From NCBI RefSeq assembly GCF_009931435.1, contig NZ_CP043414.1: DNA of 64,000 nucleotides; one strand, 5' to 3'. The position numbers were made by a program, and so were the translations under genes. This document shows, piece after piece, positions 36,225-64,000 of the stretch (position 1 is the first letter of the stretch; every line of letters starts with the position of its first letter). Source of the DNA: Escherichia coli. GTDB lineage: Bacteria; Pseudomonadota; Gammaproteobacteria; Enterobacterales; Enterobacteriaceae. The notes under the pieces are model-generated. The model was not told the origin of the DNA and ran no database searches. It saw only the letters and a list, made by a program, of their open reading frames with translations.

Positions 36225-36321
36225 TGTTTTTATTTATTCAATGAATTTATATTTCGTTGAATAGATAATATTTACCTGAATATTAGACGTTGGTTTTGTG
36301 ACTGATGTCGAATATTTGAAT

Positions 36322-36344: not shown

Positions 36345-36395
36345 CATCTCTTTAATTAAGCACAATTCCGTGTAATGTATATGCATTAGTTAATC

Positions 36396-36470: not shown

Positions 36471-36481
36471 GGAGCTATGGA

Positions 36482-37306: not shown

Positions 37307-37337
37307 TTATATATAACATTTATATGAGATAACCCGC

Positions 37338-40093: not shown

Positions 40094-40095
40094 AA

Positions 40096-40692
40096 ATGAA
40101 CAGCACGGATCTTATCCATCTCATTAAACATTTTATGCGTAACGAACATAAAGCAGTTGAAGAAGTTATTGATTCCCCCCTTTCGGAGGTCGCAAATTTA
40201 ATTAAAGTATTACAGTCTTGTCAGGGGAAAGTTGTTTTTATTGGTGTCGGTAAGTCCGGTATTATTGCCCGAAAACTCGCCGCAACATTTGCCAGCACTG
40301 GAACTCCCTCGTTTTTTGTTCACGGTACTGAAGCCGTACACGGCGATCTTGGGATGGTGGCGAAAGATGATGTTGTTATTCTTATTTCAAACAGTGGTGA
40401 GACGACAGAAATCCTGGCAACACTACCTAGTCTGAAAAAAATGGGTAATTATTTGATCTCCTTTACCCGCAGTCATCGCTCATCGCTTGCGATAAGTTGT
40501 GATTTATCCGTTGAAATTCCCGTAAAAAGTGAGGCGGATAATTTAGGTTTAGCGCCGTCATGCTCATCAACAGTCGTTCTGGTTGTTGGTGATGCGGTGG
40601 CGCTTGCGCTCTCCGAATTGAAAAAGTTTACTCGTGCTGATTTCGGCTTATATCATCCAGGAGGTGCGCTCGGTATTAAAGCAAACTCATAA
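40096..40692 (+). CDS. Single SIS-domain phosphosugar isomerase, arabinose-5-phosphate isomerase-like, lacking CBS domains
   Basis: 198 aa; GVGKSGIIARKLAATFASTGTPSFFVH and SNSGET motifs resemble the KpsF/GutQ SIS domain; no CBS pair. Confidence 0.8.
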   Translation: MNSTDLIHLIKHFMRNEHKAVEEVIDSPLSEVANLIKVLQSCQGKVVFIGVGKSGIIARKLAATFASTGTPSFFVHGTEAVHGDLGMVAKDDVVILISNSGETTEILATLPSLKKMGNYLISFTRSHRSSLAISCDLSVEIPVKSEADNLGLAPSCSSTVVLVVGDAVALALSELKKFTRADFGLYHPGGALGIKANS

Positions 40693-40762
40693 TTTTAGAA
40701 TATAAAACAGTAACCGGTCACGCCATCTTTTGGGGTGGCGTTCATTGATGTGAGTGTCAGCT

Positions 40763-41710: not shown

Positions 41711-41736
41711 GTTCAGCTAAGGAAGATTTCAGGTAC

Positions 41737-41770
41737 AAAAAAACCGCAATTTGTGAAACACATTGCGGTT
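41737..41770 (-). terminator. Rho-independent terminator of the tRNA-fMet operon (minus strand)
   Basis: On the minus strand, hairpin aaaccgcaatgtgtttcacaaattgcggttt followed by T7. Confidence 0.6.
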
Positions 41771-41788
41771 TATCAGCATCATAAGTGT

Positions 41789-41865
<77 letters not shown>

Positions 41866-41898
41866 TCACCGTACTGCTTTACTTCATCAAATTTTGAT

Positions 41899-41975
<77 letters not shown>

Positions 41976-42008
41976 TCACCGTACTGCTTTACTTCATCAA
42001 ATTTTAAT

Positions 42009-42085
<77 letters not shown>

Positions 42086-48074: not shown

Positions 48075-49167
48075 GGTTGTATTGCTGTGCCGTCCGGGCT
48101 TTGAAAAAGAGTGCGCCGCAGAAATTACCGATAAAGCCGGCCAGCGGGAAATTTTCGGTTTTGCCCGCGTGAAAGAGAATGCGGGTTATGTCATTTATGA
48201 ATGTTATCAACCTGATGATGGCGATAAGTTAATCCGTGAGCTGCCGTTCAGTTCATTAATTTTTGCCCGCCAGTGGTTTGTGGTCGGGGAACTCCTGCAG
48301 CATTTGCCGCCAGAAGATCGTATTACCCCCATTGTCGGCATGTTACAGGGCGTAGTAGAGAAGGGCGGTGAACTGCGTGTTGAAGTTGCCGATACCAACG
48401 AAAGCAAAGAGTTGCTGAAATTCTGCCGTAAATTCACCGTGCCGCTACGCGCTGCCTTGCGCGATGCCGGGGTGCTGGCGAACTATGAAACGCCGAAGCG
48501 TCCGGTTGTGCATGTATTCTTTATTGCACCAGGTTGCTGCTATACCGGTTACTCATACAGCAACAATAATTCGCCGTTCTATATGGGCATTCCGCGCCTG
48601 AAATTTCCGGCAGATGCGCCGAGTCGTTCCACGCTCAAACTGGAAGAGGCATTTCATGTGTTTATTCCGGCGGATGAGTGGGATGAACGTCTGGCGAACG
48701 GGATGTGGGCGGTGGATTTAGGCGCTTGCCCAGGCGGCTGGACCTACCAACTGGTGAAGCGCAACATGTGGGTTTATTCCGTCGACAACGGCCCGATGGC
48801 GCAAAGTCTGATGGATACCGGACAGGTGACGTGGCTGCGGGAAGACGGTTTCAAATTCCGTCCGACACGCAGCAATATCTCCTGGATGGTATGCGATATG
48901 GTTGAAAAACCGGCGAAAGTTGCGGCATTGATGGCGCAGTGGCTGGTTAATGGCTGGTGCCGTGAAACAATCTTCAACCTCAAACTGCCGATGAAAAAAC
49001 GCTACGAAGAAGTGTCACATAATCTGGCGTATATTCAGGCACAGCTTGATGAACATGGCATAAATGCTCAGATTCAGGCGCGACAGTTGTATCACGATCG
49101 TGAAGAAGTGACGGTGCACGTCCGCCGTATCTGGGCTGCGGTGGGTGGTCGTCGCGACGAGCGATAA
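48067..49167 (+). CDS. rlmM: 23S rRNA 2'-O-ribose C2498 methyltransferase
   Basis: 366 aa; 8-bp overlap with ygdD. Confidence 0.9.
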
Positions 49168-49169
49168 CA

Positions 49170-49195
49170 GGCAAGGCCGGGGCGTCGTCTCCGGC
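49170..49195. terminator. Hairpin between convergent rlmM and fucR
   Basis: Inverted repeat aggccgg...ccggcct. Confidence 0.4.
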
Positions 49196-49210
49196 CTGCT
49201 ACCCTTTCCG

Positions 49211-49942
49211 TCAGGCTGTTACCAAAGAAGCCGCAACCTGGCGCTCATCAGAAATAATGTGCGTGACCTCATCCAGATGCCCGATGCGGGCTTCCCCTGA
49301 ACGATTAAATTTACTTTTATCAATCAATAACAACGATTGCGCGGCACGTTTTAATAGCATCGATTTGTAATCAGCGTTGATGGCATTGGAGTCCCACAGT
49401 GCACCGCTGCTATCGATCCCTTCACAAGAAAAAATAAACAGATCGATTTCCAGCGATTTAAGTTGGGAAATCAGCGAGGGATTGACGTAACAGCCATATT
49501 TGCGCTCAAGTGTGCCGCCGGAACTGATCAGTTGAATGCGTTCACGTTTACCGAGTTCATGGCAAATCGGATGGCTATTGGTGAAGACCTGAATGTCGAT
49601 GTCAGGCAACTGGCGTGCCAGATACCAGCAAGTTGAACTGGCGTCTAAGGCTATCACCATCCCTTCTTCAATCCACGCGAGCGCTTCGCGCGCGATATCT
49701 GCTTTATGCGCATAATGGCTTTTCAGCCGGATGTGAAAGGGATCGCCACTGTCTTGATTTTGACGGTGGATATATTTAGCGCGCCCATGATTGCGCAGAA
49801 TTTTACCCTGCGTCTGTAATTCATTGAGATCGCGACGAATGGTTTCTTTACTGACCTTTAGCTGTTCAGAGAGAGCTTCCGTGGTCAGGCTGGTATGGTT
49901 CAGCAGCAGGTCGACTATCGCTTGCTGGCGTGCCGCTTTCAT
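49211..49942 (-). CDS. fucR: L-fucose operon activator, DeoR family
   Basis: 243 aa from the ATG at 49942; N-terminal HTH, DeoR C-terminal domain. Confidence 0.9.
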   Translation of the reverse strand: MKAARQQAIVDLLLNHTSLTTEALSEQLKVSKETIRRDLNELQTQGKILRNHGRAKYIHRQNQDSGDPFHIRLKSHYAHKADIAREALAWIEEGMVIALDASSTCWYLARQLPDIDIQVFTNSHPICHELGKRERIQLISSGGTLERKYGCYVNPSLISQLKSLEIDLFIFSCEGIDSSGALWDSNAINADYKSMLLKRAAQSLLLIDKSKFNRSGEARIGHLDEVTHIISDERQVAASLVTA

Positions 49943-49999
49943 ATTTTTCACCCCATCATTCGATAACCGCCCGCGTCATGCGGGCGTACCGGTATGAGA

Positions 50000-50422
50000 T
50001 TACGGTGTTACCCCTTTTTTTAAAAGAATATTCCCGTACTTCGCTCGTTCGCCTGTGATAACGATCGCAAAGGCTTTTTGCGCCCGCTCATAAAACGCAA
50101 AACGATTGATGCGGATGATGTCAGGACAGGGGGCTTGTAGTGAAAGCGCATTACGATAACGTCGTTCTACTTCAGGATCGAGAGTGTCACCTTCTACCGC
50201 CGCCATCATCACCAGCGGCGGTGCATAACTGTCCAGTTCAAATAACGGGATAATCGCCTGGAGTAAGTCGCTCACCAACAGGCCATCAGCACGGATCACC
50301 TGCGGTCCCATCGAATGGGCGGGAAAGTGAGCATCGGAAAAAATAATTTCATCTCCATGTCCCATCTCTGCCAGCACTTTCAATAGTTCGGGAGAAATTA
50401 ACGGCGAAATTGTTTTCAGCAT
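50000..50422 (-). CDS. fucU: L-fucose mutarotase
   Basis: 140 aa RbsD/FucU family. Confidence 0.9.
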
Positions 50423-50423
50423 T

Positions 50424-51842
50424 TCACACTTCCTCTATAAATTCAGGTTCAGTTTGTGGGTAGAAATAACGGTACTGATAATGAATCTGCGCGCGAGCTT
50501 CTTCCGGGCTGTTAAATTCCCCTACGCCATACCAACCGAACAGCGCAGCTCCTGCGACGGTCGTTTCGGCGTCGTCGAGAACTTTTACCGGAATATCAAG
50601 CATATTGGCTTTAATCTGATTCCACAATGTGTTGCGACTTCCTCCACCTACTAACAATAATTCAGAGGCTTTAAAGTGCCCGATTTTTTCCAGCATCTGT
50701 AGATTGCGCTGTAATTGCGCGGTTAACCCTTCCAGCGCCGCGCGATAGAAATGTCCGCGCGTGGTATTGAGCGTCACTCCTTGCCAGCCAGCGTTCTGAC
50801 ACGACAATAAATCACACTGCATTTTCACGCCATCCGCGCCAGGCGCGATCAGACGAGCCTCTTCAATCAACATTTGCCAGGGCGTTTCAGTAGTCCAGAA
50901 CAGTTTTCTCACCCATTCCAGCACGCCGGATGCCAGCCATTGCATACCGGGGTTATACAATCCTGCCTGGCTATCCAGTTCGCAGGTGGAACCGGCGTAC
51001 TGACTTAGCAGTGAAGTATCAACCTGCGTACTGCGGACCATTAAAATTTCCCAGGTACCGGAAGAGAGCACGGGTTCATTTTGTTCGGCACCAGCACCAA
51101 AAAGGGCGAACTGGGTATCATGACCTGCAGAAATTACCGGTATGCCAACGGGTAAGCCGAGCATTGCTGCGGCGCTGTTCTGTAGCGTACCAATCTGTTC
51201 ACCCGCTTCCACCAGACGAGGGAAGAGTCGGCGTGGAATACCGGTGGCTTGTAAAATTTGCGGACTGAAATCGCGTTGCTGGATATCCAGCATCTGGCTG
51301 GTTCCGGCCATCGTGATATCAGTAGTGAATTCGCCGGTTAAACGGTGGTTAATCAGCGACGAAATAAAGAGCCAGGCGTGCGCGCGTTCCAGCAGTTGTG
51401 GATGATTTTCTTTCAACCACACCAATTTATATAACGTATTGAAACTAAAGGCTCCGACGCCAGAAATAGCCTGCAACTGCTGTGCGGAGATCAACCGTTC
51501 AATATTGTCCATTACCGCTGCTGTTCGCGGACATTTCCAGCTAATGATCGGATAGAGCAAATCGCCTTGCTTATCTACCAGAGCGCCATCCACACCAAAG
51601 GTGGTGACGGCGATACCGCGGATGTGGCATTCAGTCAGTTCACTATTGATTTGCCGACAGCAATCAGCAAAGCGTTGCAAAATGGCGTCTAAAGACCACT
51701 GGTGCCAGGTGTTGTTTTCCATCGCGATATCGCTGGCATTAGGCGTTGAGGCGCGGGCAACAATTTTTCCCTGCCGATTAACCGCGATGGCCCTGACATT
51801 GGTTGCGCCACAGTCGAGTACCAGGATAACTTCTTGTTTCAT
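50424..51842 (-). CDS. fucK: L-fuculokinase (FGGY family)
   Basis: 472 aa from the ATG at 51842 (strong RBS aggag 7 nt upstream); the ORF-track start at 51872 has no RBS and sits in a hairpin. Confidence 0.9.
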
Positions 51843-51858
51843 AATCGCTCCTGCAATA

Positions 51859-51886
51859 TAGCCGGATAACATTGTTTATCCGGCTA
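51859..51886. other. Perfect 11-bp inverted repeat in the fucI-fucK intergenic region
   Basis: tagccggataa-cattgt-ttatccggcta. Confidence 0.4.
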
Positions 51887-51950
51887 ACCACTCTTGCTTG
51901 TTCAGGCCCGGTAGCCGGAGCGACCGGGCATCACATCAGGGAGTAATGTA

Positions 51951-53726
51951 TTAACGCTTGTACAACGGACCGTAGTTCTGGCAAGCGCGGTAATCCAGGC
52001 CTTCAATATCCATGCCGTGCGCAGCCCAGGCAGAAGGACGATACACTTTGGTCTCTTCAACGTTGTGCATACATACCGGGATACGCAGCATGGAGGCGAG
52101 AGTGATAAAGTCTGCGCCAACGTGGCCGATGGTCAGAACCCCATGGTTAGCGCCCCAGTTCGCCATTACCGAGTACACATCCGTAAACGGCCCTTTACCG
52201 GTGAGGCGCGGTGCAAACCAGGTGGTTGGCCAGGTTGAGTTGGTGCGTTTGTTGAGGATGTCATGCACATCCTTCGGTAACTCAACGCTCCAGCCTTCCG
52301 CGATTTGCAGTACCGGTCCCAGGCCTTTGATGATGTTGACACGGGTCATGGTGAACGGGACACCGCCTTCAGTAAGGAAGCGGGAAGAGTAACCACCGCC
52401 ACGGAAATATTCGTGGATAGCCGGGCACCATTCGGTCGCGGCGAGGCAAGCGTCAGCCTCTTGCTGAGAGATTTCCCAGTGCGGCTTCATCGTCGGTTTA
52501 CCTTCGCTGTCGCGTTGTTTACAGGATCCGTCCAGCGCAGCAGAACCGGAGTTGATCAAGTGGATGATGCCGTGTTCTGCCAGTCCGTCCAGTTTATGCC
52601 CCGTTACTCGCTCAATTGCTTCTGGTGACCAGTAGGTACGCACATCGGCAAATACCTGAGCGGTACCGGTGAGCTGGTGGCCCATTAGCATTGCCACGCC
52701 GTTAAGACTGTCGTTTTCGGTCGCCACGACGAAGGGTTCACGCACGCCATTCCAGTCAAATGAACTGTTAAGGATCGCTTCGGCGGTGTCGCCATTGGGA
52801 TATTGATCGGTCCAGTGACGTTGTCCCTGGAAGCCCGCAGCGATGGCGTTGTAGCCAAGTGATTCTTCCACGCGACCAATATCGGCCAGTTTGCTGTTGC
52901 CTTGCATCATGTCGCGGATACACATCGCCATCAGTAAACTTTCGCGTAGAACTGCGCGGCTTTGCTCGGCATTGCGTTGATACTGTTTGTTATTTTCATC
53001 TTCGCCATAGCGGAAGTTTTTATCAGCCCAGGCCAGCGCCATTTCCAGTTCTGCTTCGTCGTAAATCTTCTGATCAATACGGCGACGCAGTTCGGTCATA
53101 TCCACCGCCTGGACTTTCATTCCCAGCCAGGATTCAAAGAAGTTGTGGTCAACGATGGAACCGGCGATCCCCATCGAAACGCCGCCCAGCGACAGATAGC
53201 TTTTACCTTTCATACTGGCGACTGCCAAACCGGCGCGGGCAAAGCGCAGCAGTTTTTCTTCAACGTCGGCAGGAATCGATGTGTCATCGGCATCCTGAAC
53301 GTCATGACCGTAAATGGAGAATGCCGGGATGCCTTTCTGGCTGTGAGCTGCCAGAGCCGCTGCCAGGTAAACAGCGCCGGGACGTTCAGTGCCGTTAAAG
53401 CCCCAAATGGCTTTCGGGCGGGTAGGGTCCATGTCAATGGTTTCACTGCCATAGCACCAGCAAGGCGTTACCGTAATGGTGAGGCCTACATTCTGGCTGC
53501 TGAATTTTTCTTCGCAAGCAGCAGCTTCAGCCATACCCGCGATACAGGTATCGGAAATGACACACTCGACGGCAGCTCCGCAGGCATGGCGCAGTTTCTC
53601 GGTCAGCAGTGCGGCCGTAGCTTTCGCCATATTCATTGTTTGTTCTTCAAGCGACTCACGAACACCCATGCGACGACCGTCAATAACCGGGCGGATACCA
53701 ATTTTCGGTAACGTATTAATTTTCAT
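51951..53726 (-). CDS. fucI: L-fucose isomerase
   Basis: 591 aa; recognised sequence. Confidence 0.95.
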
Positions 53727-53808
53727 CAGGATTCCTCATCTCGCTTTATTGGCGCTCTGCTAAGGCGGAGAAAGGAAACCACCGAAGCAGTAGTATTGGT
53801 CATTATTT

Positions 53809-53824
53809 GCTAACTCGAGTTAGC
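53809..53824. promoter_or_regulatory. 16-bp perfect palindrome GCTAACTCGAGTTAGC, putative operator (copy 1, 83 bp upstream of fucI)
   Basis: Exact self-complementary 16-mer; an identical copy lies 239 bp away. Confidence 0.45.
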
Positions 53825-54047
53825 TTAGGTTTGTAGGCTTTTTATGCACAACTTTTTTGTTGTTGAAATGTGAGGGGCTTCACGAGAAGTGGTTAAAATA
53901 CGATCTCTGTCAAATTATTATTTAGCGGGATAAAAATAAATTTTACGTATAATCAAATGGTTATTAGATTTTAATGGTTATGCATCACAGTTTTAACTCA
54001 AATGATTTGGCTAATTTGTATACCTAAAATAGCTTTAAAAGGCGATC

Positions 54048-54063
54048 GCTAACTCGAGTTAGC
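54048..54063. promoter_or_regulatory. 16-bp perfect palindrome GCTAACTCGAGTTAGC, putative operator (copy 2, 133 bp upstream of the ABC ATPase gene)
   Basis: Identical to copy 1; immediately preceded by the palindrome gcgatcgc. Confidence 0.45.
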
Positions 54064-54195
54064 AAAATGCGAAGAATAGATTGATACGATGAATATTTAT
54101 TCAAAGGTTATTCGTATCACAGTGGAGATGGCTTTAGTAGCGACGTTTATGCCGTACTTCACATTTTCAGTTTCTGATTATTGAGGAAAGCTGCA

Positions 54196-55695
54196 ATGTC
54201 CGAAACATTTTTGCAAATGAAGCATATCACCAAACGCTTTCCTGGAGTGTTGGCGCTTAATGACGTGCAATTTACCCTACGCCGGGGCGAGGTTCATGCA
54301 TTATTAGGTGAAAATGGTGCAGGAAAATCTACATTAATGAAAATTTTGTCGGGGGTTTATCAACCTGATGAAGGCGAAATAATTTTTGAAGATAAATTAG
54401 TCTCATTTTCTGATCCGTTAAGTGCGCAAAACGTAGGTATTACTATTATTCACCAGGAATTTAATTTATTTCCCGAGCTTACAGTAGAAGAAAATATTTT
54501 TATCGGCAGGGAGTTTTGTAAAAAAAATCGCTGGCGTCTGGATGAGAAACAGCAACGCAAGGCGACGATTGAAATTTTGCAAAAATTAAATTTGGCGATC
54601 AAACCAGATACTCTGGTTGCCGACCTTACGGTAGCTCAACAACAGATGGTAGAAATTGCCAAGGCCATTTCGGTTAACGCCAGGATTCTCATTATGGATG
54701 AACCTACTGCGGCGTTAACAGAAACTGAAATTGAAAGCTTATTTCGCGTCACCCGGTTATTGAAAGAACAGGGGACCGGCATTGTGTATATATCCCACCG
54801 TCTGGAAGAGTTGGCGCTAATTGCCGACCGCGCGACTGTAATGCGTGATGGTCAGTACATCAGCACAGTAGATTATGAGTGCGTAAAAATCAGCGATCTG
54901 ATTGCCATGATGGTTGGTCGCGATTTAGGGAATATCTATCCCCGCCGCGAGGCCATACAGCAGCGGATGCCGGTTCTGGAGGTCAACGGACTGACGCGCA
55001 AAGGCGTACTGAACGATATTAATTTTACGCTTTATCGTGGCGAGATCCTCGGCTTTGCCGGACTGATGGGGGCAGGTCGTACTGAACTTGCGCGTGCGAT
55101 TTTTGGTGCGGACTCCATTGACAGCGGAACGCTAAAGTTAAATGGTAAGGAAACCGTTATTAAAGATATTTCGGATGCTATTCAGCAGGGAATTAGTTAC
55201 CTGACGGAAGACCGAAAAAAAGAAGGGTTGGCACTGAATTTATCTGTTGAACGAAATATTATGTTAGGAAATTACCCTGAGTATTCCGATCGTTTTGGGA
55301 ATGTCGATTCGCGTCGTTGCCAACAAACCAGTGAGGAACAGGTAAAAGCGTTAAGGATTAAAACGCCAAATCTTGAACAGGCTGCATTAAATCTAAGTGG
55401 AGGAAATCAGCAGAAAATTATAATTGCACGTTGGGTGTGTAAAGATACTGATATTTTAATCTTCGATGAACCCACTCGCGGCATTGATGTTGGCGCCAAA
55501 CTGGAAATCTATGAGTTAATGAATCGCCTGGTGGCAAAAGGGAAATCAATCATCATGATCTCCTCTGAATTGCCGGAGGTGTTAGGAATGTGCGACCGTA
55601 TTTTAGTGATGCGCAGTGGTCGAATTACTGGCGAACTTAGCGCAAATGAAGCGACACAAGAAAAAATCATGCAATACGCGACGTTAGAGGATTAA
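54196..55695 (+). CDS. Sugar ABC transporter ATP-binding protein with two NBDs (RbsA/MglA/XylG-like)
   Basis: 499 aa from the ATG at 54196 (RBS gaggaaag); Walker A GENGAGKST and a second NBD. Confidence 0.85.
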   Translation: MSETFLQMKHITKRFPGVLALNDVQFTLRRGEVHALLGENGAGKSTLMKILSGVYQPDEGEIIFEDKLVSFSDPLSAQNVGITIIHQEFNLFPELTVEENIFIGREFCKKNRWRLDEKQQRKATIEILQKLNLAIKPDTLVADLTVAQQQMVEIAKAISVNARILIMDEPTAALTETEIESLFRVTRLLKEQGTGIVYISHRLEELALIADRATVMRDGQYISTVDYECVKISDLIAMMVGRDLGNIYPRREAIQQRMPVLEVNGLTRKGVLNDINFTLYRGEILGFAGLMGAGRTELARAIFGADSIDSGTLKLNGKETVIKDISDAIQQGISYLTEDRKKEGLALNLSVERNIMLGNYPEYSDRFGNVDSRRCQQTSEEQVKALRIKTPNLEQAALNLSGGNQQKIIIARWVCKDTDILIFDEPTRGIDVGAKLEIYELMNRLVAKGKSIIMISSELPEVLGMCDRILVMRSGRITGELSANEATQEKIMQYATLED

Positions 55696-55698
55696 ATT

Positions 55699-56682
55699 AT
55701 GACTATCTCTGTAACCTCTCCAGACAGCAATAATAAGAAAATAAAGATAAATAAAGAACTTTTGATGCGCCTTGCGCCTCTTTTTAGCTTAATTATATTA
55801 GTGCTGTTTTTTAGTTTCAGCTCTCCCTTTTTCTTTAATACCGAAAATATCATGACGATTGCTCTGCAAACGTCGGTTATCGGCATTATGGCCATTGGGG
55901 TAACTTTCGTCATTATTACCGCGGGCATCGATCTTTCATTGGGTTCCGTGGTGGCTTTTTCTGGTGTCGCCGTGGGGATTTGCGCCACACTGGGCCTGCC
56001 GCTGCCAGTGTGTATTATTGCCGGTGTTTTAGCCGGTGGAATGTGCGGCTATGTGAATGGTTTGTTGGTCACTAAAATGACTATTCCACCGTTTATCGCT
56101 ACCTTGGGCCTGATGATGTCCGTCAGAGGTATCAATATGGTGATGACCGACGGGCGCGCCATCTATTTTGCCGATTACCCGATGTTCAAAACGCTCGCTC
56201 AGGGACGCTTGTTTGATGTGCTGCCTTATCCTGTTTTCTACCTGGTCATTGTGGCGCTTGTCGGCGCTTACATCCTGAAGAAAACGGTTATTGGTCGCTA
56301 TGTCTATGCCGTAGGCAGTAATGAAGTTGCTGCTCATCTTTCTGGTATTAAAGTTCAGCGCGTGAAAATTTTCGTCTATGCCTTCTGTGGTTTATTAACC
56401 GGGATTGCGGGTGTCATTCTCGCTTCTCGTCTCAACTCCGGACAACCGACGGTGGGTGTGGGTTATGAGCTGGAAGCTATTGCTGCGGTAGTGATCGGCG
56501 GAACCAGCTTAATGGGCGGTATTGGCACTATTGGCGGCACAATCATTGGCGCTTTCATTATGAGTGTACTGAAAAATGGCCTCAATTTAATGGGGGTCTC
56601 TCAGTTCTGGCAAATGGTCGCGATGGGCGTAGTTGTGGTCGCTGCCGTTTACCTCGATACATTACGCAAAAAGATTCGTTGA
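55699..56682 (+). CDS. Sugar ABC transporter permease (RbsC-like)
   Basis: 327 aa, multi-TM; starts 3 bp after the ATPase stop. Confidence 0.85.
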   Translation: MTISVTSPDSNNKKIKINKELLMRLAPLFSLIILVLFFSFSSPFFFNTENIMTIALQTSVIGIMAIGVTFVIITAGIDLSLGSVVAFSGVAVGICATLGLPLPVCIIAGVLAGGMCGYVNGLLVTKMTIPPFIATLGLMMSVRGINMVMTDGRAIYFADYPMFKTLAQGRLFDVLPYPVFYLVIVALVGAYILKKTVIGRYVYAVGSNEVAAHLSGIKVQRVKIFVYAFCGLLTGIAGVILASRLNSGQPTVGVGYELEAIAAVVIGGTSLMGGIGTIGGTIIGAFIMSVLKNGLNLMGVSQFWQMVAMGVVVVAAVYLDTLRKKIR

Positions 56683-56755
56683 CTTAGGCTCCCTGTTTTA
56701 TCGGGAAACAACTGCCCTGACGTTAAGGGTGATTCACTCAGAACGGAGTACAACA

Positions 56756-57706
56756 ATGAAAACCAGGCATTTTATCTATGCGTTATCTCTGCTGGCTTGC
56801 GTAAGTTCCAGCGCACTGGCGAAGGATTTAAATCTTCCGGTTGTTAGTAAAGGTTTCCAACATGAATTCTGGCAAACCGTAAAAATGGGGACTGAAGCTG
56901 CGGCTAAAGAGTTGGGGGATAAAACCAGCTATGTTGGCCCGGCTGATGAAACGCAAATAGCCGAGCAAATTCAGTTAGTCGAAAATGCGATGGCGCAGAA
57001 ACCGAATGGCTTGCTTCTGGCAGCCCTCGACGCGAATGCGCTCGCCCCACTGGTAGAAACGGCAAATTCACGCGGTATCAAAGTGGTGACCTTTGATTCA
57101 GGCATCAATTCAGACATTCCGGTGAGTTTTGTCGCCACCAATAACCGTAAAGCAGGTGCTCAGGCAGCTGATGCCTTAGCTGCGCAGGTAAATAATAAAG
57201 GGAAAGTTGGGATTATCGCGCACGTTGCAGGAACATCTTCCGCTATTGAACGCTCGGAAGGCTTCATGGAGCGTATGAAAGAAAAATATCCTGACATTAA
57301 AGTCTTACCCGTTCAGTACAGCGATGGTGACCCGCAAAAAGCGATGGATAAAACTATCGATATGATTCAGGCCAATCCCGATCTTGCTGGGATCTATGGC
57401 ACCAATGAAGGTTCAACGCTCGGGGTGGCGAATGCCATTGATAGCCAGAATCTGAAAGGTAAGGTGAAGGTCATTGGTTTTGATAGTACGGAAGCGATTA
57501 TTAACTTCCTGAAGAACGGGGTCATTCAGGGCTTTGTTGTTCAGGATGCATACCAGATTGGCTATCAAGGGATCAAAACGTTGAACGCGGCCCTTTCGGG
57601 GCAAGCCGTTGAAAAAGAGATCGATATTCCCGTGAAATTTGTTAATGCCGAGAATATTAACACGCCAGAAATCGACAAACTCCTGCACCCATTCGGTAAG
57701 AAATAA
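56756..57706 (+). CDS. Periplasmic sugar-binding protein (RbsB-like)
   Basis: 316 aa from the ATG at 56756; signal peptide MKTRHFIYALSLLACVSSSALA; type-I periplasmic binding fold. Confidence 0.85.
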   Translation: MKTRHFIYALSLLACVSSSALAKDLNLPVVSKGFQHEFWQTVKMGTEAAAKELGDKTSYVGPADETQIAEQIQLVENAMAQKPNGLLLAALDANALAPLVETANSRGIKVVTFDSGINSDIPVSFVATNNRKAGAQAADALAAQVNNKGKVGIIAHVAGTSSAIERSEGFMERMKEKYPDIKVLPVQYSDGDPQKAMDKTIDMIQANPDLAGIYGTNEGSTLGVANAIDSQNLKGKVKVIGFDSTEAIINFLKNGVIQGFVVQDAYQIGYQGIKTLNAALSGQAVEKEIDIPVKFVNAENINTPEIDKLLHPFGKK

Positions 57707-57759
57707 AAAAATTGGGGATGAATTCTCATCCCCGTTATCTCCAGCGTCAGGGAGGCTTT

Positions 57760-59340
57760 ATGCACAACGGTTATTTTCTCGGTGTCGATGTCGGATCGGC
57801 CAGTGTCAGGGCAGGCGTTTACAGTGCCAGTGGCCACAGGCTGGCATTCGCTACTGCGCCCGTCTCCCAGTTTCGCCCTGGCGGCGAGCGTGTCGAACAG
57901 TCTTCGGCAGAGATCTGGCAACAAGTTTGTAAAACGGTGAAAGAGGCGACAGCTTTGGCAGGCATCCCCATTTCCGCAATTCGCTCACTGGGTTTTGACG
58001 CTACCTGCTCGCTGGTTGTTCTTGATGAACAAGGCCAGGGTTTAGCGGTTTCGTCCGGTGGATCTGCGAATCACGACATTATTATGTGGATGGATCATCG
58101 TGCAACTGTCGAGACGGCGCAGATTAACGCAACGAAGGATCCCGTATTGCGCTACGTTGGCGGCGAAGTGAGCGTCGAGATGGAGTTACCAAAGTTACGT
58201 TGGTTGAAGACGCATCTACCGCAAACCTGGCAGGCCGCTCATCGCTTTTTCGATCTGGCGGATTTTCTGGTCTGGAAAGCAACAGGGCGAGACGTCGCGG
58301 GATTGTGCACGCTAACGTGTAAATGGAATTATCTGGCTCATGAACAACGCTTTAGCCATAGCTTACTGGAATCGGTAGACCTGACCGACATGCTCGAAAG
58401 AATTCCCGCCGAAATTCTTCCGCCTGGTGCTGCCGTGGGAACTTTAACTGCCACAGCTGCTGAAGAATTAGGATTAACGACCAATGTTATCGTGGCCAGT
58501 GGTTTGATTGATGCCCATGCCGGTGGCATGGCGCTGGCTGGCGCGCAGCCATCAGGAACGCTGGCATTGATAAGCGGAACGTCGAATTGCCACATGTTGT
58601 GCAGTGAAAAAGAAATATTCACCCCTGGCGTCTGGGGGCCATACTGGTCGGCCATGTTGCCAAATTACTGGCTAACTGAAGGCGGGCAAAGCGCCGCAGG
58701 GGCGCTGGTGGAGTGGACGCTTCAGGAGTCCGGGGCAAGCGCAAATCTTTTTAACAAGGCGCAGCAACGCGGGTGTCATCCGATTCAACTGATTAATGAA
58801 TGGGTAGCCGCCCTGGAAGCTAACGAGTCAGAACCCACACGAAATTTACATGTGCTTGCCGATCATCACGGCAACCGTTCGCCACGAGCGCGGCCCGATG
58901 CCAGAGGCAGTGTTTATGGCTTAACACTGGAGCGTGGTGAAAATCAGCTCGCGCGGCTTTATCTTGCGACTTTACAGGCAATAGCCTTTGGCACCAGACA
59001 TATTATTGAAACTCTGCGGGAAAATGGGCATACCATTACCCGATTAACATTATGTGGTGGTGCAACGCACAACCCTTTATGGCTACGCGAATATGCAGAC
59101 GTGACAGGTTGCGATATCCACCTGATGCAAGAAGAAGATGCCGTTACGTTGGGCGCAGCAATTAGCGGCGCTGTTGCCAGCGGAGCATGGGGGGATTTTA
59201 CATCTGCGTGTAAAGCAATGGTTGAAGCCGGAGAGGTTATTCAGGTAAATCCACAACGCCGTGAATTTTTAGAGCGTAAATACCGGGTTTACCTGACGCT
59301 TTGGGAGCAACAACAGGCGGTTAACCAACTGATGCAATAA
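57760..59340 (+). CDS. FGGY-family pentulose/carbohydrate kinase (D-ribulokinase-like)
   Basis: 526 aa from the ATG at 57760 (RBS ggagg); N-terminal GVDVGSASVR motif. Confidence 0.8.
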   Translation: MHNGYFLGVDVGSASVRAGVYSASGHRLAFATAPVSQFRPGGERVEQSSAEIWQQVCKTVKEATALAGIPISAIRSLGFDATCSLVVLDEQGQGLAVSSGGSANHDIIMWMDHRATVETAQINATKDPVLRYVGGEVSVEMELPKLRWLKTHLPQTWQAAHRFFDLADFLVWKATGRDVAGLCTLTCKWNYLAHEQRFSHSLLESVDLTDMLERIPAEILPPGAAVGTLTATAAEELGLTTNVIVASGLIDAHAGGMALAGAQPSGTLALISGTSNCHMLCSEKEIFTPGVWGPYWSAMLPNYWLTEGGQSAAGALVEWTLQESGASANLFNKAQQRGCHPIQLINEWVAALEANESEPTRNLHVLADHHGNRSPRARPDARGSVYGLTLERGENQLARLYLATLQAIAFGTRHIIETLRENGHTITRLTLCGGATHNPLWLREYADVTGCDIHLMQEEDAVTLGAAISGAVASGAWGDFTSACKAMVEAGEVIQVNPQRREFLERKYRVYLTLWEQQQAVNQLMQ

Positions 59341-59404
59341 GACAAAAGTTGAAAATACTTTTATGATTGTGATTTGACGTCTGGATGTTAACTGGGAAAT
59401 ACCT

Positions 59405-60403
59405 ATGGCTAAAACAGTAGAGCAGATAGCCAGCGACCTGAATTTATCGGTTACGACCGTGCGACTGGTGCTAAATGGAAAAGCGGAACAATATCGAATC
59501 AGCGTCAAAACCCAAACGCGTATCAATGAATATGTTGAACGCTATGGTTATATCATTAATCATTCCGCTCGCAGCCTTAAGCTTAACAAAACTGATACAT
59601 TAGGGTTGATTGTTCCCAACATATCCAACGTCTTTTTTGCTACGCTGGCAGAAAAACTCGAACAACGCTGTCGACGTTCCGGATATCAACTTACAATCAG
59701 TTGCACTTATGATGATGTTGACTATGAAAATAAATTGACGAAAGCATTTATCGCACGAAATGTAGATGGTCTTTTTATTGTTCCTTCGACGCTGGAAAAT
59801 CAGCAGCATCATTTACGCAAAATTCGTAAGCCAATGGTTTTACTCGATCGTGATTTTAAATATACCGATAACGCATTGGTAGAGAGTAATAATATTTCTG
59901 GCGGAGAAAAGCTGACGCAAAATATTCTTGAGGCCGGGCAGGCTCCAGTATGGTTTTTGCTGGGAGATGCCGGTTTGCCGAGTATCAGCGATCGTCTGAC
60001 AGGTTATTTGAATGCGTTGGCAAAAAAAGGGATTACCCATCGCGATTGGGTGCGGGAAGGTCCGGTAAATACTCCGGAAGGCGGCTATGTCATTATGGAA
60101 AAACTCATTGAAGAGCAGGGATGTCCGCAGGCATTTATCGCCTCGTCTTTACCTGTGCTTGAAGGCGCTGTCCGCGCGATTCGCGACCGTCTTGGCGCTG
60201 TACCGCCAGAAATCAATATTGGCACTTTCGATGAACATCCTATGCTGGGATTTCTCGCCAACAATGTCTGGTCAATGCAGCAGGATGAAAATGCCTGGGC
60301 AGAAAAAGCGTTCGAAATGATGTTAAGCGCGATCGAAGAAAGACCAGTAAAAAAAACAGTTAAAGTAGAAATGAAATTAATTAAGCGCATAAGAAAAAAA
60401 TAA
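59405..60403 (+). CDS. LacI-family transcriptional regulator
   Basis: 332 aa; N-terminal HTH TVEQIASDLNLSVTTVRLVLNG; periplasmic-binding-like effector domain; AT-rich codon usage by eye. Confidence 0.85.
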   Translation: MAKTVEQIASDLNLSVTTVRLVLNGKAEQYRISVKTQTRINEYVERYGYIINHSARSLKLNKTDTLGLIVPNISNVFFATLAEKLEQRCRRSGYQLTISCTYDDVDYENKLTKAFIARNVDGLFIVPSTLENQQHHLRKIRKPMVLLDRDFKYTDNALVESNNISGGEKLTQNILEAGQAPVWFLLGDAGLPSISDRLTGYLNALAKKGITHRDWVREGPVNTPEGGYVIMEKLIEEQGCPQAFIASSLPVLEGAVRAIRDRLGAVPPEINIGTFDEHPMLGFLANNVWSMQQDENAWAEKAFEMMLSAIEERPVKKTVKVEMKLIKRIRKK

Positions 60404-60535
60404 TAATCGCCAAAAGATATCAGGCTACTGAACAATGATATTCAGTGGCCTCCCCTTACTAAAAATAACCCCGTCTTCATTTGCGGTGCTGTTTTACGCA
60501 ACAAGGCGAGCTGAAACTGTATCTGGAGAATAGAA

Positions 60536-61183
60536 ATGGAAAGAACACGTTTATCCCGTGAAATAATTGAAACCTGTCTGGAAATGACGCGCCTTGGGTT
60601 AAATCAGGGGACAGCGGGGAATGTCAGCACACGTTTTGAAAACGGCATGTTGATTACTCCCAGCGGTATTCCTTATGAAAGAATGACGGAGAATATGATT
60701 GTCTATGTTGATGGCAACGGCAAATACGAAGAAGGTAAGATTCCTTCCAGCGAATGGCGTTTCCATATGGCGGCCTATCAAAGCAGACCGGATGCCAACG
60801 CGGTTGTTCACAATCATGCCGTTCATTGCACGGCAGTTTCCATTCTTAACCGACCGATCCCTGCTATTCACTACATGATTGCGGCGGCTGGCGGTAATTC
60901 TATTCCTTGCGCGCCTTATGCGACCTTTGGAACTCGGGAACTTTCTGAACATGTTGCGCTGGCTCTCAAAAATCGTAAGGCAACTTTGTTACAACATCAT
61001 GGGCTTATCGCTTGTGAGGTGAATCTGGAGAAAGCGTTATGGCTGGCGCATGAAGTTGAAGTGCTGGCGCAACTTTACCTGACGACCCTGGCGATTACGG
61101 ACCCGGTGCCAGTGCTGAGCGATGAAGAGATTGCCGTAGTGCTGGAGAAATTCAAAACCTACGGGTTACGGATTGAAGAGTAA
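60536..61183 (+). CDS. fucA: L-fuculose-1-phosphate aldolase (class II aldolase)
   Basis: 215 aa; C-terminal two-thirds match FucA as I recall it, N-terminal ~68 residues appear diverged. Confidence 0.85.
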   Translation: MERTRLSREIIETCLEMTRLGLNQGTAGNVSTRFENGMLITPSGIPYERMTENMIVYVDGNGKYEEGKIPSSEWRFHMAAYQSRPDANAVVHNHAVHCTAVSILNRPIPAIHYMIAAAGGNSIPCAPYATFGTRELSEHVALALKNRKATLLQHHGLIACEVNLEKALWLAHEVEVLAQLYLTTLAITDPVPVLSDEEIAVVLEKFKTYGLRIEE

Positions 61184-61210
61184 TTTCGTAAAGCAACAAG
61201 GAGAAGGATG

Positions 61211-62359
61211 ATGGCTAACAGAATGATTCTGAACGAAACGGCATGGTTTGGTCGGGGGGCTGTTGGAGCTTTAACCGATGAGGTGAAACGCCGTGGTTAT
61301 CAGAAGGCACTGATCGTCACCGATAAAACGCTGGTGCAATGCGGCGTGGTGGCGAAAGTGACCGATAAGATGGATGCTGCAGGGCTGGCATGGGCGATTT
61401 ACGATGGTGTAGTGCCCAACCCGACAATTACTGTCGTCAAAGAAGGGCTTGGTGTATTCCAGAGTAGCGGTGCGGATTACCTGATCGCTATTGGTGGTGG
61501 TTCTCCACAGGACACGTGTAAAGCGATTGGCATCATCAGCAACAACCCGGAATTCGCCGATGTGCGCAGTCTGGAAGGGCTTTCCCCGACCAATAAACCC
61601 AGTGTACCGATTCTGGCAATCCCCACCACAGCAGGCACTGCGGCAGAAGTGACCATTAACTATGTGATCACTGACGAAGAAAAACGACGCAAGTTCGTTT
61701 GTGTTGATCCGCATGATATCCCGCAGGTGGCATTTATTGACGCTGACATGATGGATGGTATGCCGCCTGCGCTGAAAGCCGCGACGGGTGTCGATGCGCT
61801 CACTCATGCTATTGAGGGGTATATTACCCGTGGCGCGTGGGCGCTAACCGATGCACTGCACATTAAAGCGATTGAAATCATTGCTGGGGCGCTGCGAGGA
61901 TCGGTTGCTGGTGATAAGGATGCCGGAGAAGAAATGGCGCTCGGGCAGTATGTTGCGGGTATGGGCTTCTCGAATGTTGGGTTAGGGTTGGTGCATGGTA
62001 TGGCGCATCCACTGGGCGCGTTTTATAACACGCCACACGGTGTTGCGAACGCCATCCTGTTACCGCATGTCATGCGCTATAACGCTGACTTTACCGGTGA
62101 GAAGTACCGCGATATCGCGCGCGTTATGGGCGTGAAAGTGGAAGGTATGAGCCTGGAAGAGGCGCGTAATGCCGCTGTTGAAGCGGTATTTGCTCTCAAC
62201 CGTGATGTCGGTATTCCGCCACATTTGCGTGATGTTGGTGTACGCAAGGAAGACATTCCGGCACTGGCGCAGGCGGCTCTGGACGATGTTTGTACCGGTG
62301 GCAACCCGCGTGAAGCAACGCTTGAGGATATTGTAGCGCTTTACCATACCGCCTGGTAA
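61211..62359 (+). CDS. fucO: L-1,2-propanediol oxidoreductase (lactaldehyde reductase), iron-containing ADH
   Basis: 382 aa from the ATG at 61211 (an ATG at 61208 is also possible); recognised sequence. Confidence 0.9.
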   Translation: MANRMILNETAWFGRGAVGALTDEVKRRGYQKALIVTDKTLVQCGVVAKVTDKMDAAGLAWAIYDGVVPNPTITVVKEGLGVFQSSGADYLIAIGGGSPQDTCKAIGIISNNPEFADVRSLEGLSPTNKPSVPILAIPTTAGTAAEVTINYVITDEEKRRKFVCVDPHDIPQVAFIDADMMDGMPPALKAATGVDALTHAIEGYITRGAWALTDALHIKAIEIIAGALRGSVAGDKDAGEEMALGQYVAGMGFSNVGLGLVHGMAHPLGAFYNTPHGVANAILLPHVMRYNADFTGEKYRDIARVMGVKVEGMSLEEARNAAVEAVFALNRDVGIPPHLRDVGVRKEDIPALAQAALDDVCTGGNPREATLEDIVALYHTAW

Positions 62360-62375
62360 TTGCGCTGATGTGACG

Positions 62376-62408
62376 ATGCCGGATGCGACGTTTGCGCCGT
62401 ATCCGGCA
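62376..62408. repeat. REP-like palindrome between fucO and xni
   Basis: gccggatgcgacgtttgcgccgtatccggc. Confidence 0.5.
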
Positions 62409-62413
62409 CGCCG

Positions 62414-63280
<867 letters not shown>

Positions 63281-64000
63281 TTAATCGCAGGCAACGATCT
63301 TCATCGCCAGGCCACCACGAGAGGTTTCGCGGTACTTGGCATTCATATCTTTACCTGTTTCGTACATGGTTTCGATAACTTTATCGAGGCAGACACGTGG
63401 TTCGCTGGTACGGCGTAGCGCCATACGTGCAGCGTTCACCGCTTTTACTGCCGCAATGGCGTTACGCTCAATGCACGGTACCTGAACTTGTCCAGCAACC
63501 GGGTCACAAGTCAGACCGAGGTTGTGTTCCATGGCGATTTCCGCCGCGATGCACACCTGCGCCGGGCTTGCGCCTAACAGTTCTGCCAGACCAGCTGCCG
63601 CCATAGAGCACGCCACGCCAACTTCACCCTGGCAACCCACTTCAGCACCAGAAATCGAGGCGTTCATTTTATAAAGAGAGCCAATGGCGCTGGCAACCAG
63701 CAGGTAACGAGCCAGTGAGTTAGCGTTCACTTCGCGGATAAACTTGTCGTAGTACGCCAGCACTGCCGGGATAATCCCGCACGCACCGTTAGTCGGCGCA
63801 GTCACCACGCGACCGCCCGCAGCGTTCTCTTCGTTCACTGCCAGTGCGAACATGTTGATCCAATCAACAACCGCCATCGGGTCAGTGGTGGTTTTATCCT
63901 GGCTGACCAGCATCCGGCGCAGTGCCGCAGCGCGGCGTGGAACGCGCAGTTTGCCTGGCAACACGCCTTCGGTGGCAATACCGCGCTCAATACCGCCACG
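63281..64000 (-). CDS. sdaB: L-serine dehydratase (3' portion; gene continues beyond window end)
   Basis: C-terminal region ends ...[11 protein letters not shown]; the frame stays open to the window edge; an sdaA/sdaB paralog call rests on synteny with xni-fucO. Confidence 0.8.

Follow-up and report, generated by a model that had tools for sequence, protein, structure and literature searches.

The fuc locus in this stretch of Escherichia coli DNA (the window, 64 kb in length) is very probably the E. coli B-type allele of fuc, a combined L-fucose and D-arabinose catabolic locus. Five intact plus-strand ORFs were found in the ORF layout between fucI on the minus strand and fucA on the plus strand, and these five genes are orthologous to, and arranged in the same order as, those of strain REL606. 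The arrangement has already been published as the E. coli B/BL21 type, a minority form of the fucose locus, and is therefore no discovery. What is added here is the mapping of the junctions, the mutual exclusivity of fucP and the cassette, the set of genera without fucP and a candidate operator; the operator, the junction mapping and a link to family GH172 were not found in the published literature on the locus that was accessible.

Identity and distribution of the locus

The block and its surrounding genes are as follows.

49211-51842, minus: fucK, fucU and fucR, K-12-type, all intact
51951-53726, minus: fucI, L-fucose/D-arabinose isomerase (ORF layout, RefSeq)
53712-60748: block in place of K-12 fucP, the fucP-fucA control region and about the first 71 codons of fucA (pairwise K-12 alignments)
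54196-55695, plus: ABC ATPase of a sugar transporter, two fused nucleotide-binding domains, about 500 amino acids (NCBIfam, RefSeq at identical loci)
55699-56682, plus: ABC permease, RbsC/AraH-like (NCBIfam)
56756-57706, plus: periplasmic sugar-binding protein, RbsB/AlsB-like (NCBIfam)
57760-59340, plus: darK, FGGY pentulose kinase, D-ribulokinase (TIGR01315, REL606 orthology)
59405-60403, plus: LacI-family regulator (NCBIfam, RefSeq name)
60536-61183, plus: fucA, L-fuculose-1-phosphate aldolase, intact, chimeric
61208-62359, plus: fucO, lactaldehyde reductase (ORF layout)

A sequence-only reading of the window had proposed this five-gene plus-strand set between fucI and fucA, and the ORF layout and NCBIfam models bear it out; the starts of the ATPase (54196), the binding protein (56756) and the kinase (57760) are those of RefSeq and not the earliest in-frame start codons. 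The same reading had remarked that the MFS permease FucP was missing. Neither the gene nor a remnant is present: K-12 FucP had no tblastn match anywhere in the window (64 kb; best E = 3.6), and a blastn search of it with the K-12 fucP gene and its intergenic DNA was likewise negative. The G+C content was observed to be 36-40% in the fucI/ABC intergenic region and to run from 40% to 55% along the cassette.

The suspected link to darK of E. coli B proved correct, as fucI and fucA of REL606 also enclose these five genes in unchanged order, with fucP absent and with identical junctions. Identity to REL606 is 97.5% for the ATPase, 97.9% for the permease, 99.7% for the binding protein, 98.0% for darK (which occupies the equivalent position) and 99.6% for lacI, and the flanks from rlmM to xni are collinear at the same chromosomal position. 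The two loci differ in fucA, which is intact in the window but disrupted (fucA::IS1) in both REL606 and T7 Express, a BL21 derivative. E. coli alleles are combined as a mosaic in the window cassette, whose left part is identical to strain R32_14_1F and whose part over darK is nearly identical to strain 2014C-3075.

An ABC system in place of fucP has been described as "variant 2" of the fuc operon (Saif 2023; PMC10221146), and the window has this composition, with the ABC genes, darK and the LacI-type gene between divergent fucI and fucA and no fucP. The replacement was reported in 50 of 1,058 genomes, with BL21 as an example, and in 3 of 40 clinical isolates (PMC10221146), and metabolic models of B strains already include such a locus (PMC6150544). 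The loss of fucP and the ABC genes, which had been flagged as needing an explanation, are part of this published B-type locus.

The cassette was found in 381-382 of 5,426 complete E. coli genomes (about 7%), REL606 included, and fucP in 5,039; together they account for 5,421 genomes. In E. coli genomes, the presence of either fucP or the cassette excludes the other. The sequence-only reading had named as a possible refutation that the arrangement is simply the common E. coli configuration: it is annotated and recurrent, and its function is largely known, but it is a minority form. For the E. coli strains that carry it, the workhorses BL21 and REL606 among them, the fucose locus is differently built and probably differently regulated, which is relevant to fucose sensing, gut colonisation and B-strain metabolic models.

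Outside E. coli, the layout without fucP was also observed in E. whittamii, eight Citrobacter genomes, Lelliottia, Huaxiibacter, E. hormaechei, Atlantibacter and Affinibrenneria. None of the 80 top-ranking kinase relatives, each at 55% identity or more, had fucP within 9 kb of darK, and no ABC-type locus had another fucose transporter within 9 kb. Genes fucK, fucA, fucO and fucU are intact beside the cassette across many genera without fucP. In Chimaeribacter, fucI, darK and lacI occur together without the ABC genes, and the isomerase and kinase therefore form a conserved unit. fucR is absent from the locus in E. whittamii and more distant genera. It is kept in E. coli and Citrobacter carriers despite the loss of its K-12 target region, and the model of regulation proposed below leaves its role unaccounted for.

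Control region and its wider occurrence

Conserved elements were found in the region between fucI and the ABC genes.

53809-53824: operator candidate O1, perfect palindrome GCTAACTCGAGTTAGC, 83-98 bp upstream of the fucI start codon
53869-53884: CRP-like site TGTGAGGGGCTTCACG (TGTGA-N6-TCACG) between O1 and O2, putatively bound by CRP from the consensus
53983-54040: conserved intergenic blocks TCACAnTTT...CAAAtgaTTTG and CTAAAATAGCTTTAAAAGG (multi-species alignment)
54048-54063: operator candidate O2, second perfect copy of GCTAACTCGAGTTAGC, 133-148 bp upstream of the ABC ATPase start

The 16-bp palindrome occurs in two perfect copies, where 0.18 matches at up to three mismatches would be expected by chance. 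Beyond E. coli it is kept in 15 loci from nine genera and in every ABC-type locus examined. O1 and O2 are 239 bp apart, and a spacing of 239-240 bp was observed in all 13 loci having both palindromes, whereas the intergenic region overall shows 55% column identity. A distance of 239 bp does not correspond to an integral number of helical turns, so the spacing does not imply DNA looping between O1 and O2. Both half-sites of the CRP-like site are invariant in the eight aligned species. The CTAAAATAGCTTTAAAAGG block contains a -10-like TAAAAT (54025-54030) just upstream of O2, which is only tentatively assigned to a promoter; no convincing placement of a sigma-70 promoter was found.

The regulator aligned with TIGR02417 (Cra/FruR-ScrR) over residues 4-328 of 332 (E = 1e-69) at 234.9 bits against a cut-off of 389.55. 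It is a LacI-family protein nearest to Cra/FruR-ScrR and is not an assigned member of the Cra/ScrR subgroup. The position, palindromy and conservation of the 16-bp palindrome suggest that it is likely the operator of this regulator. In the proposed model, the LacI-family protein would repress both divergent operons, fucIKUR and abc-darK-lacI, through the two palindromes, while CRP would act at the invariant site that separates the two, and transcription of abc-darK-lacI would probably continue into fucAO. As a counter-point, Affinibrenneria retains the palindromes, yet no lacI homologue was found within its locus at the thresholds used.

Further copies of the palindrome were found upstream of an operon encoding a GH172 protein and a GPH symporter in Lelliottia, Huaxiibacter and Chimaeribacter, and the GH172 family includes exo-D-arabinofuranosidases (PMC10115798). 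The GH172 gene is present in 6 of 5,426 E. coli genomes, and cassette carriers are generally without it. We tentatively suggest that fuc in E. coli may be a long-lived polymorphism between a FucP/FucR form and an ABC/DarK/LacI form, the latter with a LacI-type repressor acting through two operators of fixed spacing. The second form might be the remnant of a wider regulon for scavenging D-arabinofuranosides, because the same operator precedes the GH172 operon in three genera. D-arabinose is usually regarded as an unnatural sugar for enteric bacteria; if this reading is true, it would gain a natural source and a dedicated regulator in them. The predicted operators and the GH172 link serve as hypotheses on the regulator's signal and on the natural origin of D-arabinose.

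Kinase, transporter and their substrates

The kinase scored 534.7 bits against TIGR01315 (cut-off 408.7) with residues 22-536 of 542 aligned, and fell under every cut-off of the NCBIfam models for L-ribulokinase, xylulokinase and fuculokinase. It is DarK, which acts as D-ribulokinase in the D-arabinose pathway of E. coli B. DarK is known to be located inside the fucose locus (PMC12307932), D-ribulose 5-phosphate is the product used in E. coli B (PMC6336799), and B strains grow on D-arabinose (PMC3446290; PMC6150544). FucI would convert D-arabinose to D-ribulose, a step taken from the literature and supported here, and DarK would then form D-ribulose 5-phosphate for the pentose phosphate pathway, with FucA not required. 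REL606 scores "++" on D-arabinose and "-" on L-fucose (PMC3446290); since its fucA is interrupted by IS1, the former gives independent support for the bypass of the aldolase. L-fucose would still be degraded through FucI, FucK and FucA, all of which are intact in the window. By orthology with the B strains, the strain of the window is predicted to grow on D-arabinose without mutation and to have D-ribulokinase activity.

The earlier proposal of a remodelled locus, with ABC uptake and a D-ribulokinase route for D-arabinose, is supported by the REL606 match, the transporter being the presumptive part of it. The transporter proteins were below every NCBIfam cut-off for the ribose (RbsABC), xylose, L-arabinose, allose, galactose and galactofuranose equivalogs but have the make-up of these systems, with a fused two-domain ATPase, one permease and an RbsB-like binding protein. 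The ATPase aligned over its full length with RbsA, XylG and AraG (RbsA score 585.9, cut-off 745), the permease scored best with RbsC (304.2, cut-off 398) and the binding protein with AlsB (127.4, cut-off 335) and RbsB (126.9, cut-off 337). The binding protein has an N-terminal signal peptide, MKTRHFIYALSLLACVSSSALA, ending before KD, and among solved structures it is closest to 4RXT (E = 6e-55) and 4WUT (E = 2e-51), the latter of which contains D-fucose. The transporter would take up D-arabinose and, because the ring stereochemistry is the same, probably L-fucose too.

It is unlikely that the transporter is specific for D-arabinose or a D-arabinose-containing oligosaccharide and that high-affinity L-fucose uptake is lost in carriers. 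Such specificity would suit the GH172 D-arabinofuranosidase-family operon in the regulon of three genera, and metabolic models needed an unassigned fucose transport reaction (PMC6150544). BL21 also grows poorly on fucose in the sole growth comparison in the literature, BL21 against K-12 (PMC10221146). However, this comparison is confounded by fucA::IS1, seen in a BL21 derivative, which explains the poor growth; the published conclusion that FucP transports fucose better than the ABC system does is based on BL21, from this same fucA::IS1 lineage. The retention of intact FucK, FucA, FucO and FucU in many genera without fucP argues that fucose still enters, and fucose was fermented by all three fucP-negative clinical isolates (Saif 2023). 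Aldolase-positive revertants of E. coli B grow on fucose without fucP.

More doubtful is the idea of the cassette as an independent unit for the use of free D-ribulose, similar to Rbl and merely seated in the fuc locus, with L-fucose and D-arabinose entering otherwise. The operator motif also precedes fucI in every species examined, the Chimaeribacter fucI-darK-lacI unit exists without ABC genes and D-arabinose itself supports the growth of B strains, all of which speak against such independence. An ABC transporter, an FGGY D-ribulokinase and a regulator would indeed suffice for D-ribulose use, and a comparable system is present in C. rodentium (PMC12307932), but DarK and RblK belong to separate clades and separate contexts (Cottam et al., PMC12307932) and no C. 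rodentium locus is among the 80 best kinase relatives. In favour of such a module, a K-12 fucP deletion mutant still grows on fucose, although slowly (PMC10221146), and other routes of fucose entry must therefore exist; the ABC-type loci, however, lack any other fucose transporter within 9 kb.

Junctions of the block and comparison with known systems

Pairwise alignments to K-12 place the junctions inside codon 5 of fucI and about codon 71 of fucA, and the block extends 15 nt into the former gene and about 213 nt into the latter. The interval had been given as 53727-60740 in the sequence-only reading; its content stands but its limits do not, as the block differing from K-12 runs from 53712 to 60748 and measures 7,037 bp; its K-12 counterpart has about 2.1 kb, which makes the B-type allele about 4.9 kb longer. 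fucI is a K-12-type allele (97.5% to K-12) except for codons 1-5, which come from the replaced block and give the N-terminus MKINTL where K-12 has MKKISL. Nucleotides 1-213 of fucA are cassette-type (75% identical to K-12, 90% to E. whittamii), and the remainder is K-12-type (98%). Since the block also replaces the 5' ends of fucI and fucA, the cassette is an allelic replacement with both junctions inside these genes and not an insertion. A 1994 description of E. coli B, which reportedly mentioned an extra segment, implied an insertion.

That the block is an island gained recently by horizontal transfer and inserted into a fuc locus otherwise resembling that of K-12 is highly improbable. The low G+C at the left edge (36-40%), the carriage by just 7% of genomes and the larger size would fit such an island, but the junctions within homologous coding sequence and the block's own fucI and fucA 5' ends indicate that it came by homologous replacement, its source being a fuc locus built in the same way. 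No integrase or transposase ORF was found between 53727 and 60535 (ORF layout, NCBIfam) and no tRNA at the block edges (the window's only tRNAs are at 41789-42085), the alleles diverge within E. coli by up to 3.6% (abcP 96.4%, darK 96.8%) and lie in at least two flanking backgrounds (xni and sdaB of the window show only 95-96% identity to the K-12-like flanks of REL606), and E. whittamii, the nearest relative outside E. coli, is only 88-91% identical over the cassette (core flanking genes 93-94%). The B-type allele would rather represent an old alternative fuc architecture common to E. coli and other Enterobacterales.

Compared with the K-12 fuc regulon (fucPIKUR/fucAO, activated by FucR and CRP), the window shares the chromosomal position and K-12-type fucI, fucK, fucU, fucR, fucO and the 3' two-thirds of fucA at 97-99% identity. 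It lacks fucP and the whole fucP-fucA control region, in place of which it has the ABC transporter, DarK, the LacI-type regulator and a new control region that contains the two palindromes. Rbl of Citrobacter rodentium (Nat Commun 2025, PMC12307932) likewise combines a monosaccharide ABC transporter with an FGGY D-ribulokinase (RblK) and feeds D-ribulose 5-phosphate into central metabolism. However, its kinase clade and genomic context are different and it has no linkage to fucI, whereas the module of the window is embedded among the fuc genes and apparently co-regulated with them.

The kinases of the Klebsiella ribitol operon and the yeast and human FGGY D-ribulokinases share family and reaction with DarK according to the literature, the TIGR01315 score above cut-off being that of DarK only and the others being compared by published description. 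They serve ribitol oxidation or metabolite repair, whereas D-ribulose here would come from isomerisation of D-arabinose by FucI. In Dysgonomonas gadei, PUL42 acts on D-arabinan and combines GH172 and GH183 enzymes with a fucose isomerase (PMC10115798). The pairing of GH172 with a fucose-type isomerase for D-arabinose is paralleled in Lelliottia, Huaxiibacter and Chimaeribacter, where GH172 shares its operator motif with fucI and darK, but PUL42 is a polysaccharide utilisation locus from the Bacteroidota, and its uptake is of the SusCD type.

Gene content of the locus and boundaries of the replacement

The locus belongs to the E. coli B-type fuc/dar cluster and shows every sequence-level feature that defines this cluster. 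In place of fucP, five plus-strand genes are located between fucI and fucA. The ORF map and the NCBIfam searches confirmed these five genes as the sequence-only reading had described them, except that its start codons need correction and are given here as in RefSeq. The genes of the locus are, from left to right:

rlmM, plus strand, left of the fuc genes (ORF map)
fucR, fucU, fucK and fucI (fucI at 51951-53726), minus strand (ORF map)
Five cassette ORFs between fucI and fucA, plus strand (ORF map), as in the next five lines
Sugar ABC ATPase of about 500 aa with two nucleotide-binding domains, RefSeq start 54196, plus strand (NCBIfam; end-to-end alignment with RbsA, XylG and AraG)
Permease, RbsC/AraH-like, plus strand (NCBIfam)
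Periplasmic binding protein, RbsB/AlsB-like, RefSeq start 56756, plus strand (NCBIfam)
FGGY pentulose kinase, RefSeq start 57760, plus strand (NCBIfam TIGR01315, 534.7 bits against a cut-off of 408.7)
LacI-family regulator, nearest to the Cra/ScrR group, plus strand (NCBIfam)
fucA, 60536-61183, plus strand (ORF map)
fucO, right of fucA, plus strand (ORF map)
xni and sdaB, right end of the locus map, minus strand (ORF map)

Neither K-12 FucP (tblastn) nor the K-12 fucP gene with its control region (blastn) has a match anywhere in the 64-kb window, which excludes a displaced or decayed copy there and bears out the earlier claim that fucP is absent. The K-12 fucP-fucA control sequence is also absent from the new intergenic regions (blastn and alignments to K-12) and FucR sites of the K-12 type therefore cannot be presumed. 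An Rfam scan of 49000-62500 gave no match.

Identity to K-12 was observed to stop 15 nt into fucI, where 53712 is the first divergent base of the alignment, and fucI codons 1-5 read MKINT in the window versus MKKIS in K-12. At the other end, the first 213 nt or so of fucA share only about 75% identity with K-12, and identity is 98% from 60749 on. The divergent block (53712-60748) spans 7,037 bp where K-12 has about 2.1 kb, a net gain of about 4.9 kb. A 1994 paper by Elsinghorst and Mortlock reportedly placed an extra segment of similar size, 5.2 kb, on the restriction map of E. coli B; the gene order in the 1988 and 1994 abstracts is said to be fucA-darK-fucI-fucK. Both junctions are located inside homologous coding sequence and the block brings its own fucI and fucA 5' ends, which are nearer to E. 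whittamii than to K-12. The block is therefore not an insertion but an allelic replacement, brought in by homologous recombination from a fuc locus that already had the ABC-type architecture. Its flanks hold neither mobility genes nor tRNA genes (ORF map and tRNA positions).

Elsewhere in the window, a 5.6-kb segment (36222-41788) without K-12 counterpart has amiC on one side and three tRNA-Met genes (41789-42085) on the other. Its products are a BglG/LicT-type antiterminator, a MalX-like PTS IIBC component, a PatB/MalY-type C-S lyase, a short KpsF/GutQ-like sugar-phosphate isomerase domain protein and a 2-hydroxyacid dehydrogenase. A 1.85-kb segment in the tas to lplT interval (9318-11172) also has no K-12 counterpart, and its minus strand encodes a 556-aa protein of the MuiA family (TIGR02231; 9356-11026).

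Relation to E. coli B, distribution and origin

The full block was found in 381 of 5,426 complete E. coli genomes (megablast of the interval) while the rest match at the fucI end only, and the kinase gene occurs in 382, in every case as a single chromosomal copy. Since fucP is present in 5,039 genomes, fucP and the cassette together account for 5,421 of the 5,426 and behave as mutually exclusive alleles. The kinase carriers include REL606 (E. coli B; 98.0% identical), where the annotation gives fucI, ATPase, permease, binding protein, FGGY kinase, LacI regulator, fucA and fucO in the identical order and without fucP. The shared position, order and identity make the cassette kinase gene darK, which encodes the D-ribulokinase with which E. 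coli B catabolises D-arabinose.

This collinearity, together with published accounts, supports the suggestion of the sequence-only reading that the locus is remodelled and carries a D-ribulokinase related to darK. The arrangement, including the missing fucP and the ABC transporter, is already annotated and published as the E. coli B-type form. Cottam et al. (PMC12307932) cover DarK within the fucose locus, and Saif et al. (PMC10221146), with BL21 as the example, also found the ABC-type variant in three of 40 clinical isolates, those without fucP. Metabolic reconstructions of REL606 (PMC3446290) and BL21(DE3) (PMC6150544) draw the cluster and assign to it D-arabinose catabolism with ABC uptake. 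The locus is real yet already known, its gene content, occurrence in E. coli and kinase role all having been described. The junction mapping, exclusivity count, cross-genus architecture, operator prediction and GH172 link were not found in the accessible literature and are modest refinements, not discoveries.

Relatives were sought by scanning one genome per species and then comparing every protein of the locus by tblastn. The fucP-less layout is common to E. whittamii, Lelliottia, Huaxiibacter, eight Citrobacter genomes (C. youngae among them), Enterobacter hormaechei subsp. hoffmannii, one C. freundii strain, Atlantibacter and Affinibrenneria. In Chimaeribacter the unit is reduced to fucI-darK-lacI, and remoter kinase homologues (at most 62% identity) occupy unrelated contexts. 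Compared with E. whittamii, DNA identity is 88-91% for the cassette, 93-94% for the core flanks (rlmM, xni and sdaB) and only 82-86% for fucIKU, far below the neighbouring core genes. This pattern indicates that the E. coli allele is a chimera with K-12-type fucIKUR and fucAO ends and an ABC-type centre.

We considered whether the cassette had recently arrived as an island from either Citrobacter or E. whittamii, and rejected the idea because identity is just 72-83% and 88-91%, respectively; no recent donor was found among the sampled species. Divergence among the cassette alleles of E. coli reaches 3.6% and the window cassette is a mosaic, being identical to R32_14_1F on the left and nearly identical to 2014C-3075 over darK. 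Furthermore, the alleles occur in at least two flanking backgrounds, as xni and sdaB of the window share just 95-96% identity with the flanks of REL606, which are K-12-like. Given this allele divergence, mosaicism and variety of backgrounds, long residence in E. coli or repeated recombination would fit the sequences better than a single recent event.

We also noticed that xni and sdaB (62250-63964) are 95-96% identical to K-12, REL606 and 2014C-3075 versus 98-99.6% to R32_14_1F, unlike rlmM and fucR of the window, which are 98.5% identical to K-12. The background of the window is therefore locally quite diverged from K-12.

Candidate operators and the GH172 operon

Two perfect copies of a 16-bp palindrome, GCTAACTCGAGTTAGC, were found in the divergent intergenic region between fucI and the ATPase gene (O1, 53809-53824; O2, 54048-54063), where 0.18 matches are expected by chance with up to three mismatches allowed. 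At its centre the palindrome has the CG step that is characteristic of operators of the LacI family, and we take it to resemble a Cra half-site. The LacI-type regulator is predicted to act at these candidate operators. Both copies are perfect in E. whittamii, as they are in the seven Citrobacter loci covering the region, and carry one or two mismatches in Lelliottia, Huaxiibacter, Enterobacter and Affinibrenneria. The O1-O2 spacing is constant (239-240 bp) in all these two-site loci, with a regional column identity of only 55%. The C. freundii strain and Atlantibacter have a recognisable fucI-proximal copy only, with two mismatches.

All eight species of the alignment share, without change, a CRP-like site (TGTGA-N6-TCACG, 53869-53884). 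Between this site and O2, a block at 53983-54013 (TCACAnTTT...CAAATGATTTG) is strongly conserved in 8/8; it holds the short palindrome CAAAT-G-ATTTG and does not fit the CRP consensus. A -10-like TAAAAT is located about 17 nt upstream of O2. A sigma-70 consensus scan gave 14 sites versus 11.7 expected from shuffled sequence, and without an excess no promoter can be placed with confidence.

In E. whittamii, rlmM adjoins fucU directly (153-1718 of its locus, L005) and fucR is hence missing, as it is from the locus in more distant genera, which leaves the LacI-type protein as the sole regulator in those loci. The E. coli and Citrobacter carriers retain an intact fucR despite the loss of the K-12 control region. 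No third palindrome copy was found upstream of fucA in the window at up to three mismatches, nor was a terminator-like site found on the plus strand of the lacI-fucA spacer, which is 132 nt long in the window and shortens to about 25 nt in Lelliottia and Enterobacter. Together these observations suggest that transcription may read through from lacI into fucAO. According to a 1988 abstract, L-fucose and D-arabinose themselves reportedly induce the B enzymes, and constitutive mutants are said to de-repress the fucose enzymes and D-ribulokinase together, which would fit a shared repressor.

Further palindrome copies are located directly upstream of an orthologous operon of a DUF2961 gene and a GPH symporter in Lelliottia (L014, 10949-13793), Huaxiibacter (L015, ~15206) and Chimaeribacter (L019, 11704-14624). 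DUF2961 corresponds to glycoside hydrolase family GH172, and exo-alpha-D-arabinofuranosidases are among the enzymes of this family that have been characterised (PMC10115798). RefSeq names the rare E. coli homologues by the GH172 family name, and the gene occurs in only 6 of the 5,426 genomes. The position of the palindrome before this operon connects D-arabinose with the motif and so with the LacI-type regulator, and suggests a putative D-arabinoside-scavenging arm of the fuc-locus regulon in these three genera.

Predicted catabolism, uptake and related systems

Both laboratory E. coli B lineages carry IS1 inside fucA, namely REL606 (L003, 11825-13249) and T7 Express, a BL21 derivative (L085, 7825-9249), and fucA of the window is intact. 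D-arabinose catabolism in E. coli B is covered by Watanabe et al. Despite its disrupted fucA, REL606 scored "++" on D-arabinose and "-" on L-fucose in phenotype arrays (PMC3446290); the DarK route therefore works without the aldolase, which is an independent argument for this pathway. This is consistent with Saif et al. (PMC10221146), who noted that B strains are without activity of the aldolase and that revertants which have regained it grow on fucose. With fucA intact, both sugar pathways are predicted to be functional in the window strain, where L-fucose would pass through FucI, FucK and FucA, and D-arabinose through FucI and DarK into the pentose phosphate pathway.

The ABC transporter has the general make-up of monosaccharide importers, yet no named specificity was matched in NCBIfam. 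Its binding protein has a typical signal peptide, and the nearest solved relatives are the structural-genomics sugar-binding proteins 4RXT (E = 6e-55), whose ligand we take to be D-arabinose, and 4WUT (E = 2e-51), whose ligand was confirmed as D-fucose. No second fucose transporter was found nearby by tblastn at any ABC-type fuc locus of any genus, and fucK, fucA and fucU are kept at all of them. On these grounds, we favour a transporter that would take up both D-arabinose and L-fucose. The published claim that FucP transports fucose more efficiently than the ABC system depends on the slow growth of BL21 on fucose, which is confounded by fucA::IS1 in that lineage; a K-12 fucP deletion mutant is also slow on fucose (PMC10221146).

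Among known systems, the cassette kinase belongs to the TIGR01315 pentulose kinases. The Rbl D-ribulose system of C. rodentium is alike in its logic, combining an ABC transporter with a D-ribulokinase, but its kinase belongs to another clade and it is found in another context than the window cassette (PMC12307932).
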